From Escherichia coli (GTDB lineage: Bacteria; Pseudomonadota; Gammaproteobacteria; Enterobacterales; Enterobacteriaceae), in assembly GCF_003334385.1 (NCBI RefSeq), contig NZ_QOWN01000025.1: DNA of 64,000 nucleotides. One strand, written 5' to 3'. How positions within the stretch are numbered: position 1 is the stretch's first letter; each line of letters begins with the position of its first letter. Below, piece after piece: positions 8,810 through 56,543 of the stretch. The translations under genes were made by a program, and so were the position numbers. The notes below the pieces were generated by a model. It was given only the letters and a program-made list of their open reading frames with translations, was not told the origin of the DNA and searched no databases.

Positions 8810-8893
8810 GGCCTGATAAGACGCGTGAGCGTCGCATCAGGCATCGTTCACCATTGCCGGATGCGGCGTTAACGCCTTATCCGGCCTACGGTT
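8810..8893. repeat. pair of inverted REP elements (BIME)
   Basis: GCCTGATAAGACGCGTGAGCGTCGCATCAGGC and GCCGGATGCGGCGTTAACGCCTTATCCGGCCTAC between convergent ypfH and ypfN. Confidence 0.6.
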
Positions 8894-11060: not shown

Positions 11061-11120
11061 TTCCTGAGACAAAGTACAAACAGCAAGAACCCGCTGAGCA
11101 GGTTCTTAATCGGAAAGTTG

Positions 11121-11153
11121 AAAAAGGCGACACATTGGCATGTCGCCTTTTTT
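11121..11153. terminator. bidirectional rho-independent terminator (ypfM / acrD)
   Basis: AAAAAGGCGACA-CATTGGCA-TGTCGCCTTTTTT, a 7-bp GC stem flanked by an A-run and a T-run, 5 nt from the acrD stop. Confidence 0.55.
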
Positions 11154-11158
11154 ATTGC

Positions 11159-16341: not shown

Positions 16342-18321
16342 ATGAATCGTTTTATTATGGCCAACAGTCAGCAATGTCTGGGTTGTCATGCTTGTGAAAT
16401 CGCCTGTGTCATGGCTCACAATGATGAGCAACATGTCCTGAGCCAACACCATTTTCATCCCCGAATTACGGTTATCAAACATCAACAGCAACGTAGTGCA
16501 GTGACCTGTCACCATTGTGAAGATGCGCCCTGCGCCCGTAGCTGCCCTAATGGCGCAATCAGCCACGTTGATGACAGCATTCAGGTCAATCAGCAAAAGT
16601 GTATTGGCTGTAAATCCTGCGTGGTGGCCTGTCCTTTTGGTACGATGCAAATCGTCCTGACACCCGTCGCGGCAGGAAAAGTAAAAGCCACGGCGCATAA
16701 ATGCGACCTTTGTGCGGGGCGCGAAAACGGTCCTGCCTGTGTTGAGAATTGCCCGGCGGACGCGCTGCAACTGGTCACTGACGTCGCACTCTCCGGCATG
16801 GCGAAATCCCGCCGCTTGCGCACCGCGCGTCAGGAACATCAACCGTGGCATGCCAGTACCGCGGCGCAAGAAATGCCGGTAATGAGTAAAGTCGAACAAA
16901 TGCAGGCAACGCCCGCGCGTGGCGAGCCGGATAAACTGGCGATTGAAGCGCGCAAAACCGGTTTTGATGAAATTTATCTGCCATTTCGCGCCGACCAGGC
17001 ACAACGGGAAGCCTCGCGCTGCCTTAAGTGCGGCGAGCACAGCGTTTGTGAATGGACCTGCCCGCTGCATAACCATATACCGCAGTGGATTGAACTGGTG
17101 AAAGCCGGAAACATCGACGCCGCCGTCGAGCTTTCTCACCAGACCAACACCCTGCCGGAAATTACCGGACGCGTTTGTCCGCAAGACCGTTTGTGTGAAG
17201 GTGCCTGTACTATTCGCGATGAGCACGGCGCGGTAACTATCGGCAACATTGAACGCTACATTTCAGATCAGGCGTTGGCGAAAGGTTGGCGTCCTGACTT
17301 AAGCCATGTCACCAAAGTGGACAAGCGGGTGGCGATTATCGGTGCAGGTCCGGCAGGGCTGGCCTGTGCGGATGTTCTGACCCGCAATGGCGTGGGGGTG
17401 ACGGTGTACGATCGCCATCCAGAAATCGGTGGCTTGCTCACTTTCGGCATTCCTTCTTTCAAACTGGATAAATCCCTGCTGGCACGCCGTCGGGAAATCT
17501 TCAGCGCGATGGGGATTCACTTCGAACTCAATTGTGAAGTGGGTAAAGATGTCTCTTTGGATTCGCTTTTGGAACAATACGACGCGGTCTTCGTTGGCGT
17601 AGGCACTTACCGTTCCATGAAAGCGGGTTTACCCAATGAAGATGCGCCGGGCGTTTATGACGCGCTGCCGTTCCTCATTGCCAACACTAAACAGGTGATG
17701 GGGCTCGAAGAGCTACCGGAAGAGCCGTTTATCAATACCGCCGGACTTAACGTCGTGGTACTGGGCGGCGGCGACACCGCGATGGACTGTGTGCGTACCG
17801 CACTGCGCCACGGCGCGAGTAACGTCACCTGCGCTTATCGTCGTGATGAAGCTAACATGCCAGGCTCGAAGAAAGAAGTGAAGAACGCCCGCGAAGAGGG
17901 GGCCAACTTCGAATTTAACGTCCAGCCGGTGGCGCTTGAGCTGAATGAACAAGGTCACGTCTGCGGGATTCGTTTCCTGCGCACGCGTCTTGGAGAGCCG
18001 GATGCCCAGGGGCGTCGGCGTCCAGTGCCGGTGGAAGGCAGTGAATTTGTCATGCCAGCCGACGCGGTGATTATGGCGTTTGGCTTCAATCCGCACGGGA
18101 TGCCGTGGCTGGAGTCGCACGGTGTAACGGTAGACAAATGGGGCCGCATCATCGCGGATGTGGAAAGCCAGTACCGTTACCAGACCACCAATCCGAAAAT
18201 CTTCGCTGGTGGTGACGCCGTGCGTGGTGCGGATCTGGTGGTTACCGCAATGGCAGAAGGACGTCATGCGGCACAGGGGATTATTGACTGGCTGGGGGTA
18301 AAATCAGTCAAATCTCACTGA
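16342..18321 (+). CDS. aegA: putative oxidoreductase, Fe-S plus FAD/NAD(P)-binding subunit
   Basis: 659 aa; N-terminal 4Fe-4S ferredoxin cysteine clusters, C-terminal GltD-like domain with GAGPAG dinucleotide motif. Confidence 0.9.
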   Translation: MNRFIMANSQQCLGCHACEIACVMAHNDEQHVLSQHHFHPRITVIKHQQQRSAVTCHHCEDAPCARSCPNGAISHVDDSIQVNQQKCIGCKSCVVACPFGTMQIVLTPVAAGKVKATAHKCDLCAGRENGPACVENCPADALQLVTDVALSGMAKSRRLRTARQEHQPWHASTAAQEMPVMSKVEQMQATPARGEPDKLAIEARKTGFDEIYLPFRADQAQREASRCLKCGEHSVCEWTCPLHNHIPQWIELVKAGNIDAAVELSHQTNTLPEITGRVCPQDRLCEGACTIRDEHGAVTIGNIERYISDQALAKGWRPDLSHVTKVDKRVAIIGAGPAGLACADVLTRNGVGVTVYDRHPEIGGLLTFGIPSFKLDKSLLARRREIFSAMGIHFELNCEVGKDVSLDSLLEQYDAVFVGVGTYRSMKAGLPNEDAPGVYDALPFLIANTKQVMGLEELPEEPFINTAGLNVVVLGGGDTAMDCVRTALRHGASNVTCAYRRDEANMPGSKKEVKNAREEGANFEFNVQPVALELNEQGHVCGIRFLRTRLGEPDAQGRRRPVPVEGSEFVMPADAVIMAFGFNPHGMPWLESHGVTVDKWGRIIADVESQYRYQTTNPKIFAGGDAVRGADLVVTAMAEGRHAAQGIIDWLGVKSVKSH

Positions 18322-18339
18322 TAGCCTGCGCAGACAAAC

Positions 18340-18387
18340 CCGACTTCACAGCGTAAGATAATTGTTCATTTCGCGCTGTGGAGTCGG
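18340..18387 (+). promoter_or_regulatory. RNA hairpin sequestering the nudK Shine-Dalgarno
   Basis: CCGACTTCACAGCG ... CGCTGTGGAGTCGG: 14-bp stem (one G-U pair), 20-nt loop; 3' arm contains GGAG and ends 1 nt before the nudK ATG. Confidence 0.4.
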
Positions 18388-18388
18388 T

Positions 18389-18964
18389 ATGACGCAACAA
18401 ATCACCCTCATTAAAGACAAAATTCTCTCCGATAACTATTTCACCCTGCACAACATTACTTACGATCTCACGCGCAAAGACGGCGAAGTTATCCGCCATA
18501 AACGTGAAGTGTACGATCGCGGCAATGGTGCGACGATCCTCCTGTACAACACGAAGAAAAAGACCGTGGTTCTGATTCGTCAGTTCCGTGTCGCTACCTG
18601 GGTTAATGGCAATGAAAGCGGGCAGCTGATTGAAAGCTGCGCCGGGCTGCTGGATAACGACGAACCGGAAGTGTGTATTCGCAAAGAAGCGATTGAAGAG
18701 ACGGGCTATGAAGTGGGTGAAGTGCGCAAATTATTTGAACTGTATATGTCGCCAGGCGGTGTGACTGAGCTAATCCACTTTTTTATCGCCGAATACAGTG
18801 ACAATCAGCGCGCTAACGCCGGTGGCGGTGTCGAAGATGAAGATATTGAAGTGCTCGAGCTGCCGTTCAGCCAGGCGCTGGAGATGATCAAAACCGGCGA
18901 GATACGTGACGGTAAGACGGTGTTATTGCTTAACTATTTGCAAACGTCACATTTAATGGACTGA
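18389..18964 (+). CDS. nudK: GDP-mannose pyrophosphatase (Nudix hydrolase)
   Basis: ORF 18362..18964; ATG 18389 gives [11 protein letters not shown] (191 aa); Nudix-box-like [21 protein letters not shown]. Confidence 0.85.
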
Positions 18965-19089
18965 AAAATAACAATAATATTTCGTTGTTTATTATTGGCT
19001 CAATCCGACAAATCCGATTGAGCCGCGCTACCTGCGCAACGAAGATACGACTTGTGCTGTTTGTTTGAACTTCTGGGGTCGTACCGTCC

Positions 19090-20133
19090 ATGCGCTATCG
19101 CATTTTCCTTCTCTTTTTTTTCGCTTTGTTGCCGACGTCTTTGGTGTGGGCGGCACCAGCGCAACGGGCGTTTTCCGACTGGCAGGTCACCTGTAATAAC
19201 CAAAATTTCTGCGTGGCGCGTAATACGGGCGATCATAATGGACTGGTGATGACCCTGAGCCGCAGCGCCGGGGCGCATACCGATGCCGTTTTACGTATTG
19301 AGCGCGGCGGATTGAAGTCGCCGGAGGCGTCAGAAGGGGAGATAGCGCCACGGCTGCTGTTAGATGGCGAGCCGTTGGCGTTAAGTGGTGACAAGTGGCG
19401 GATTTCACCATGGTTATTAGTAACCGATGATACGGCAACCATCACCGCGTTTTTGCAGATGATTCAGGAAGGGAAGGCAATCACCTTACGCGATGGCGAT
19501 CAGACCATTTCTCTGAGTGGCTTAAAAGCAGCGTTGTTGTTTATTGATGCTCAGCAAAAGCGCGTTGGCAGTGAAACCGCGTGGATCAAGAAAGGGGACG
19601 AACCGCCGCTCAGCGTACCGCCCGCGCCTGCGCTGAAAGAGGTCGCGGTGGTTAACCCAACGCCGACGCCACTCTCACTCGAAGAACGCAACGATTTGCT
19701 GGATTATGGAAACTGGCGGATGAATGGTCTGCGCTGCTCGCTTGATCCATTGCGTCGTGAGGTGAATGTCACTGCGCTGACTGATGATAAAGCGCTGATG
19801 ATGATTAGCTGTGAGGCAGGGGCCTATAACACCATTGATTTGGCATGGATTGTGTCGCGTAAAAAGCCACTAGCTTCGCGCCCGGTTCGGTTGCGTTTGC
19901 CGTTCAACAACGGTCAGGAGACGAATGAACTGGAACTGATGAACGCAACATTTGATGAGAAATCGCGTGAACTGGTGACCTTAGCGAAAGGGCGCGGATT
20001 AAGCGATTGTGGCATTCAGGCGCGCTGGCGCTTTGACGGTCAGCGTTTTCGCCTGGTGCGTTACGCCGCAGAACCCACCTGCGATAACTGGCATGGGCCA
20101 GACGCCTGGCCCACGTTGTGGATCACCCGTTAA
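19090..20133 (+). CDS. ypfG: DUF1176-family periplasmic protein
   Basis: 347 aa; N-terminal signal peptide MRYRIFLLFFFALLPTSLVWAAP. Confidence 0.8.
   Translation: MRYRIFLLFFFALLPTSLVWAAPAQRAFSDWQVTCNNQNFCVARNTGDHNGLVMTLSRSAGAHTDAVLRIERGGLKSPEASEGEIAPRLLLDGEPLALSGDKWRISPWLLVTDDTATITAFLQMIQEGKAITLRDGDQTISLSGLKAALLFIDAQQKRVGSETAWIKKGDEPPLSVPPAPALKEVAVVNPTPTPLSLEERNDLLDYGNWRMNGLRCSLDPLRREVNVTALTDDKALMMISCEAGAYNTIDLAWIVSRKKPLASRPVRLRLPFNNGQETNELELMNATFDEKSRELVTLAKGRGLSDCGIQARWRFDGQRFRLVRYAAEPTCDNWHGPDAWPTLWITR

Positions 20134-33545: not shown

Positions 33546-33745
<200 letters not shown>

Positions 33746-56428: not shown

Positions 56429-56543
<115 letters not shown>

Follow-up and report, generated by a model that had tools for sequence, protein, structure and literature searches.

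A conserved hairpin between aegA and nudK in Escherichia coli and its probable role in insulating nudK translation from upstream transcription

In the pyrC and pyrD genes of Escherichia coli and Salmonella, studied by Turnbough and colleagues, the selection of a transcription start site decides whether the mRNA carries a hairpin that sequesters the Shine-Dalgarno (SD) sequence. The int gene of lambda is subject to retroregulation, wherein the sib element located 3' of the gene brings about RNase III cleavage and decay. For IS50/Tn5, Krebs, Schulz and Reznikoff reportedly found translation of the transposase to be inhibited by fold-back of the RNA. Also, IS10/Tn10 is protected from outside transcription (Davis, Simons and Kleckner 1985 Cell 43:379, as cited in PMC13181058). 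Here we describe a hairpin that appears to be an undescribed instance of this known logic. It is located between aegA and nudK in a 64,000-nt stretch of E. coli DNA (assembly GCF_003334385.1, contig NZ_QOWN01000025.1), which is called the window below and to which all coordinates refer, and its 3' side contains the ribosome-binding site (RBS) of nudK. No paper naming both nudK and aegA was found in the literature searched. The hairpin probably insulates nudK translation from aegA transcription, a function that leaves room for a contribution from Rho or from 3'-end formation.

Both IS10 and IS50 resemble the nudK locus in that transcription from the element's own promoter begins between the arms of a hairpin, and the 3' arm holds the RBS. 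In this type of arrangement, the 5' arm is included only in transcripts that come in from outside, and these are not translated, which provides insulation from upstream promoters. The hallmarks of RBS occlusion that depends on transcript origin can be recognized at nudK, where the RBS pairs with sequence upstream of the nudK transcription start (+1), and where a promoter located between the arms gives rise to an open leader. Unlike the insertion sequences, however, nudK is a chromosomal housekeeping gene rather than a mobile element, and its "outside" transcription comes from one fixed, regulated neighbor, aegA. Furthermore, the anti-SD arm of nudK is also its promoter spacer, and silencing of read-through RNA at nudK is a prediction. 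Across 5426 E. coli genomes, the hairpin is single-copy (median per genome, 1 place) and each time between aegA and nudK. Thus, it is a chromosomal feature that would work like the insertion sequence case without being part of such an element.

The resemblance to pyrC and pyrD is that the position of the start site decides whether the 5' arm is present, and hence whether the RNA is translated. In pyrC, however, a single promoter offers alternative starts separated by a few bases, and CTP/GTP levels select among them, whereas the two RNA classes at nudK stem from two promoters, those of aegA and nudK. The lambda sib system shares with nudK an RNA structure that is complete on read-through only, such that one promoter gives expression of a gene that stays silent when transcribed from another. 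The difference is that sib acts from the 3' side via RNase III decay, whereas the nudK hairpin would act via SD occlusion.

The hairpin and the origin of the nudK transcript

The hairpin is formed on the plus strand by a 5' arm, CCGACTTCACAGCG (18340..18353), which constitutes the anti-SD sequence and is defined by sequence, fold, and covariation, and by a 3' arm, CGCTGTGGAGTCGG (18374..18387), which holds the SD and is present both in read-through RNA and in RNA from the nudK promoter. The two arms make 14 contiguous pairs, comprising 13 Watson-Crick pairs and one U-G pair (18346/18381), and they enclose a loop of 20 nt (18354-18373). The SD sequence, GGAG, is located at 18380-18383 within the 3' arm, and the nudK ATG begins one base past the stem. 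This geometry had been laid out in a preliminary description prepared from the letters of this stretch, and the arm coordinates, the single G-U pair, the loop length, and the 1-nt distance between the stem and the ATG all hold when checked against the sequence.

The same description had called the hairpin stable, which folding calculations bear out. The segment 18325-18405 folds at -32.9 kcal/mol, compared with -16.5 +/- 2.8 kcal/mol for 200 dinucleotide shuffles (RNAfold; z = -5.8), and none of the 200 shuffles folds as well. The opposite strand folds less well (-29.7 kcal/mol, z = -3.5). In the read-through context, the probability that the SD is paired is 1.0. When the window was scanned for uninterrupted stems of at least 14 bp with no more than one G-U pair and a loop of 3-30 nt, only two were recovered, namely the nudK hairpin and a terminator-like stem at 11119-11154, whereas 20 first-order Markov simulations of the window produced none. 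The hairpin is thus confirmed to be real and beyond chance. A general repeat search of the whole window did not list it, and its longest exact seed is only 7 nt.

The two flanking genes are aegA (16342..18321, plus strand) and nudK (18389..18964, plus strand; ATG at 18389-18391), which encodes GDP-mannose pyrophosphatase. Both were taken from the list of open reading frames and from RefSeq annotation, in the case of aegA that of the identical K-12 sequence. Indeed, the 4 kb tested around the hairpin are identical to E. coli K-12 MG1655, and the gene order is narQ (-), aegA (+), nudK (+), ypfG (+), and tktB (-). The aegA-nudK spacer measures ~70 nt in E. coli and is without a terminator, and a consensus promoter and terminator scan called 0 terminator-like sites in 18000-18800. 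In the 1996 characterization of the locus, aegA was reportedly found to be induced anaerobically and repressed by nitrate.

The nudK transcript of MG1655 does not begin upstream of this hairpin, but inside its loop. The sole start listed for nudK (b2467) in a published genome-wide table of primary 5' ends is position 2581523 of NC_000913.2 on the minus strand, with 161 reads and a 5' untranslated region (UTR) of 23 nt (Kim et al. 2012 PLoS Genet 8:e1002867, PMC3415461, Table S1); for comparison, 2-20 reads underlie many of the other starts listed there. The accompanying 51-nt string, CACTGATAGCCTGCGCAGACAAACCCGACTTCACAGCGTAAGATAATTGTT, which terminates in ...GCGTAAGATAATTGTT and whose last base is the +1 (PMC3415461), matches positions 18316-18366 of the window. 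The start is therefore at 18366 on the plus strand, a placement also made via the nudK ATG. This position is exactly 7 nt past the TAAGAT hexamer and 13 nt beyond the end of the 5' arm. Because the 5' arm is upstream of +1, the mRNA made from nudK's own promoter is unable to form the hairpin, and the leader folded from 18366 (-6.1 kcal/mol, z = +1.0) is no more structured than its shuffles. The preliminary description had proposed that the hairpin buries the nudK RBS, and it had named a start inside or downstream of the 5' arm as the result that would speak against this proposal. The mapped start at 18366 (PMC3415461) is such a start, and so burial of the RBS survives as a prediction for aegA read-through RNA and fails for nudK's own mRNA.

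Upstream of this start is a sigma-70 promoter whose hexamers are separated by 17 nt and whose mapped 5' end is 7 nt past the -10 element. The -35 hexamer, CAGACA (18331..18336, plus strand; -35 to -30 relative to the mapped start), contains a conserved GACA and is included in an active Salmonella fragment. The 17-nt spacer between the two hexamers (18337..18353, plus strand) contains the whole 5' arm, and the -10 hexamer, TAAGAT (18354..18359, plus strand; -12 to -7), with its invariant TAnnAT pattern, makes up the first six bases of the loop. The consensus scan missed this promoter, which has 8/12 matches, with the cut-off set at 9/12.

The Salmonella fragment is a 55-bp piece of the yffH/nudK region, CCTTCAGCAGACAAAACCGACCTCACGGCGTAATATTAATGCTCTTTTTACACCC (Duprey and Groisman 2020, PMC7387798, as corrected in PMC10790772). 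It is homologous to 18324-18378 and thereby includes the -35 hexamer, the 5' arm, the -10 hexamer, the loop, and 5 nt of the 3' arm. It lends independent support to the promoter, since in vivo the fragment drives constitutive expression and in vitro it also yields transcripts, and yffH/nudK mRNA has been reported to be invariant across many conditions and serves as a normalizer (PMC7387798).

Covariation of the stem and its association with aegA

The upstream 100 nt were read at 80 orthologous nudK loci from other Enterobacteriaceae, and the 66 loci with aegA directly upstream of nudK were aligned. Standard pairs occupy 94.8% of the pair cells in this alignment, compared with 39-46% when the 3' partners are slid by 1-3 columns. 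Double-sided changes are found in 8 of the 14 pairs (56 cells), against a shuffled mean of 4.9 pairs (23.7 cells), and the observed covariation score was reached by 0/500 shuffles. The arms are thus different in different genera and remain complementary, as illustrated by CCGACTTCACAGCG / CGCTGTGGAGTCGG in E. coli, CCGGTTTCACGGCG / CGCCGTGGAGCCGG in Citrobacter, and CGGGTTCCGCAGCG / CGCTGTGGGGCCCG in Klebsiella. G-U pairs account for 156 of 834 cells (~19%), and because of them pairing is higher for plus-strand RNA (94.8%) than for minus-strand RNA (77.3%). To judge from this alignment, the stem is selected at the RNA level, as plus-strand RNA. The strand bias argues against both a DNA operator and an antisense RNA.

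Besides the stem, the conserved features are GACAA just 5' of the 5' arm and TAnnAT immediately 3' of it. Positions 1, 2, 5, and 6 of the latter hexamer are invariant in 66/66 loci and the middle two vary. The bases of GACA, 17 nt from the -10, are each conserved in 92-98% of loci (61-65/66). The idea that GACA is kept for pairing with AUGUC of the start region, which forms an outer helix in many folds, was rejected, since 16 sequences in which the second codon disrupts this pairing conserve GACA to the same degree. The GG of the SD is invariant in all 66 loci, and the 3' arm coincides with the SD region in every genus, with 1-3 nt separating its end from the start codon.

The gap between the stop codon of aegA and the 5' arm varies, ranging from ~8 nt in Klebsiella and 18 nt in E. 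coli to >100 nt in Citrobacter species that carry elements similar to repetitive extragenic palindromic (REP) sequences. The REP-like palindromes (for example, GCCTGATGGCGCTTCGCTTATCAGGC) occur in seven Citrobacter loci (L006, L013, and L015-L019) between the aegA stop codon and the nudK promoter. They widen the spacer to 106-191 nt, and the promoter and the SD pairing are intact downstream of them. In Kosakonia and Enterobacter sp. Bisph1 (L023, L030, and L055), ~16 nt are added between the 5' arm and the -10, in the region some 80-20 nt ahead of nudK. This insert is ACGACGCTTCGCAGCG-like and resembles a partial duplication of the 5' arm; it breaks the GACA-17-TAnnAT spacing, and SD pairing is kept over the longer loop.

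A strong hairpin tends to accompany a co-oriented aegA. An upstream aegA is missing, within the 1.5 kb covered (495 nt for L043), at ten of the 80 loci, which represent at least 7 genera. These loci belong to Salmonella, Pseudescherichia vulneris, Enterobacter, Leclercia, Pluralibacter, Siccibacter, and Franconibacter. The gene upstream is a divergent acrD-like gene in six of them (L038, L040, L057, L058, L071, and L077), a divergent narQ in L032, a divergent minus-strand gene in L021, and another co-oriented gene, apparently of cytochrome type (CxxCH motif), in L080; the 495 nt upstream in L043 hold no clearly assignable gene. By tests that ignore phylogeny, the median probability that the SD is paired (-75..+12) is 0.61 without aegA (n=10) and 1.00 with aegA (n=71; Mann-Whitney p = 1.4e-5), and the median folding energy (-75..+3) is -20.9 versus -29.9 kcal/mol (Mann-Whitney p = 3e-5). 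The promoter motif, on the other hand, is kept in 7/10 of the aegA-less loci.

Overall divergence is not the cause of the weaker stems at aegA-less loci, since aegA-linked loci whose NudK is equally distant (76-78% identity; L072 and L074-L079) keep strong stems of -28 to -36 kcal/mol. A pair within Pseudescherichia has -26.9 kcal/mol at the aegA-linked locus (L063) and -14.9 kcal/mol at the aegA-less one (L038). These comparisons suggest that the promoter serves nudK everywhere, whereas the stem persists at loci in which aegA points toward nudK.

Proposed function of the hairpin and competing explanations

In the mechanism that we favor, the sigma-70 promoter of nudK is nested in an RNA hairpin, and the 5' arm is accommodated inside the promoter spacer, the one portion of a promoter that is free of sequence constraint. 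RNA from the nudK promoter has a 23-nt leader with the 3' arm only, its SD is open, and NudK would be produced constitutively. Any transcript containing both arms needs a start upstream of 18340, and so aegA transcription is the only plausible source. An aegA RNA carrying both arms is expected because there is no terminator between the two genes, and this absence is the reason to propose that aegA transcription reads through. On such RNA, the 14-bp stem (about -29 to -33 kcal/mol) would lock the SD and leave nudK untranslated, with the block to initiation in vivo being predicted from folding energies. The hairpin would thus be a filter for transcript origin that shields a housekeeping gene from its regulated neighbor. 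A link to aegA read-through had been raised in the preliminary description as a form of coupling; the evidence does lead to read-through RNA, and the likely direction is blocking rather than coupling.

What happens to the blocked RNA might involve Rho. The start of nudK is C-rich and G-poor, and the segment 18400..18477 (plus strand) is a candidate Rho loading site when untranslated. Its composition is 32% C and 8% G, and the difference (C-G = 0.24) is in the top 0.1% of 78-nt windows in the 64-kb window. An excess of C over G is kept in nudK orthologs, with a median of +0.12 at the gene start versus -0.08 for the remainder. This segment could be a Rho utilization (rut)-like site or a plain feature of N-terminal coding regions. 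If the former, the untranslated start would let Rho terminate the aegA transcript, which is plausible, and the hairpin would then cap the 3' end of aegA mRNA against exonucleases. The notion that a C-rich nudK start is a peculiarity of aegA-linked loci was dropped after the skew proved not to differ (p = 0.15).

Several observations weigh against insulation as the function of the hairpin. First, the data also fit a hairpin selected mainly for 3'-end formation of aegA mRNA. The equal C-over-G skew in loci with and without aegA lends no specific support to Rho, and no aegA start is present in the 2012 table of transcription start sites (TSSs) under its conditions. One aegA-less locus, L032, has a strong stem, presumably as a result of recent loss of aegA, and three loci that have aegA (L025, L047, and L073) have weak stems. 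The disregard of phylogeny in the comparisons of loci with and without aegA must also be counted here. Among the E. coli copies examined, the most divergent one (L084, 95% identity; E. coli MFDS1022581, NZ_CP169399.1, 186-236) has a stem with two internal mismatches, one from an A-to-C change on the 5' side and one from a T-to-A change on the 3' side, and its -35, -10, and SD are unchanged. Finally, by the numbering given for the Salmonella fragment (PMC7387798, primer 16981), -50 to +5, +1 would be located eight nt further downstream than the start mapped in E. coli and 15 nt after the -10. Either position is beyond the 5' arm, but the two do not coincide. In the imp fragment used by the same authors, the best -10 match is likewise at fragment positions 31-36, and their numbering may be systematically shifted.

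The strongest competing explanation is that the hairpin serves aegA alone, as a structure at the 3' end of its mRNA. It might be an exonuclease barrier that is left after Rho termination or processing, or a noncanonical termination or pause element, and its overlap with the SD would be incidental to a compact spacer. This is a genuine possibility, although we judge it unlikely as the whole explanation, and it is compatible with insulation on the same RNA. It predicts equally well that the hairpin is strong with aegA and weaker in 9/10 of the aegA-less loci (the exception being L032). Moreover, the aegA-nudK spacer of E. coli contains no further 3' structure, and the stretch after the hairpin is C-rich and G-poor. 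However, a structure needed only for a 3' end would not have to coincide with the SD region in every genus and stop within 1-3 nt of the start codon. Nor would SD pairing be expected to persist beside the Citrobacter REP-like hairpins, which might themselves protect a 3' end. The lack of a U-tract means that the hairpin is not an intrinsic terminator. In the partial supplementary tables of one E. coli study of 3' ends (Adams 2021), for which the cells were grown aerobically, aegA and nudK are not mentioned. This lack of a listed 3' end counts weakly against a 3'-end structure, and it also counts against the favored mechanism. For these reasons, we favor occlusion of the SD as the trait under selection, given that the 3' arm coincides in all cases with the SD region close to the start codon and that the stem stays at the SD despite the Citrobacter REP-like inserts and the 16-nt inserts in Kosakonia.

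A second explanation, which follows the preliminary description, is that the hairpin is part of a nudK leader and makes translation depend on temperature, on an RNA-binding factor, or on coupling to ribosomes that terminate on aegA. A stable stem does cover the SD, and a weak promoter-like site at 18047-18074 could in principle give rise to a nudK RNA with a long leader. However, the one start mapped for nudK falls within the loop, so the main mRNA is without the 5' arm and gating of this mRNA by temperature or a factor finds no support. With about -29 kcal/mol, a perfect 14-bp stem has a stability well beyond what a thermometer allows. Translational coupling is made unlikely by the variable distance between the aegA stop codon and the 5' arm (~8 to >100 nt), over which ribosomes finishing aegA could not reliably unfold the stem. 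There is also no Rfam match, and a promoter-like match of the kind seen inside aegA is no more than chance would supply (0.8 expected). Gating by a leader is therefore very improbable.

Least credible of all is the proposal that the inverted repeat acts as DNA, either as an operator for a dimeric regulator or as a cruciform over the nudK promoter, since, even though the arms flank the -10 and the start site in a place typical for repressor operators, their sequences differ between genera with complementarity kept where an operator would keep sequence, the ~19% of cells with G-U pair only in plus-strand RNA and are mismatched in DNA or in minus-strand RNA, the repeat decays without aegA while the promoter stays, and nudK/yffH expression is reported to be constitutive.

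If insulation by the hairpin is confirmed, it would explain how a housekeeping gene located ~70 nt behind a regulated gene can be expressed constantly without an intervening terminator, and a promoter spacer would be seen to double as a regulatory RNA arm. The locus would also serve as a small, clean test system for translation that depends on transcript origin and for Rho termination that is gated by translation. The 14 spacer bases at 18340-18353 can be substituted while the -35, the -10, and the SD are left intact. There is a lesson for annotation as well, in that a hairpin burying an SD should not be read as translational control of a gene's mRNA unless the start site is known.

It is conceivable, if speculative and improbable, that an anti-SD located in a promoter spacer is a general and so far unrecognized means of insulating tandem genes that lack terminators in enterobacterial genomes, with the blocked read-through RNA being passed to Rho. 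Were this the case, translation of the downstream gene would report on its own promoter alone, and a Rho terminator would act on foreign transcripts only. The aegA-nudK pair would then be the first chromosomal example with evolutionary proof, in the form of covariation and of decay after loss of aegA.

Other element classes and minor observations

The hairpin can also be compared with more familiar classes of RNA and DNA elements. An intrinsic terminator shares with it a G+C-rich stem directly downstream of a stop codon. The 20-nt loop, the tail UAUGACGCAAC, and the lack of a U-tract set the nudK hairpin apart from this class, and together with the 0 terminator calls they agree with the earlier statement that it is not a simple aegA terminator. 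It likewise differs from thermometers, riboswitches, and curated leaders, given that its 5' arm is outside the nudK mRNA and that no Rfam match covers it. An Rfam scan of 17800-19200 (E <= 10) returned nothing over the hairpin and two chance matches to miRNA models elsewhere. Membership in the REP or bacterial interspersed mosaic element (BIME) families does not apply, because the hairpin is single-copy and its sequence is unlike the REP-like palindromes of the window. Those palindromes are located at 8856-8885 (GCCGGATGCGGCG...), 33616-33658, and 56461-56523, with CTTATCAGGCCTACAA / TTGTAGGCCGGATAAG as further sequences among them, and are ordinary E. coli extragenic repeats.

The promoter-like site inside aegA (18047-18074, plus strand), TTGTCA-16-GATTAT, is the single consensus promoter-like match near the hairpin, and no start is listed at 18047-18074 in the 2012 TSS table. 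For Klebsiella pneumoniae, a start for KPN_02801 was not found in the partial TSS data available. In one E. coli genome (L083; E. coli YZ22PE165, NZ_CP139130.1), aegA is annotated as a frameshifted pseudogene. The region matching 18150-18550 aligns in two pieces in this genome, which does not represent a variant of the hairpin, and the ~29 additional bases are apparently inside aegA. The other 14-bp stem of the window, at 11119-11154, is formed by TGAAAAAGGCGACA / TGTCGCCTTTTTTA with an 8-nt loop and a T-rich 3' side, and it looks like an intrinsic terminator that is possibly bidirectional.

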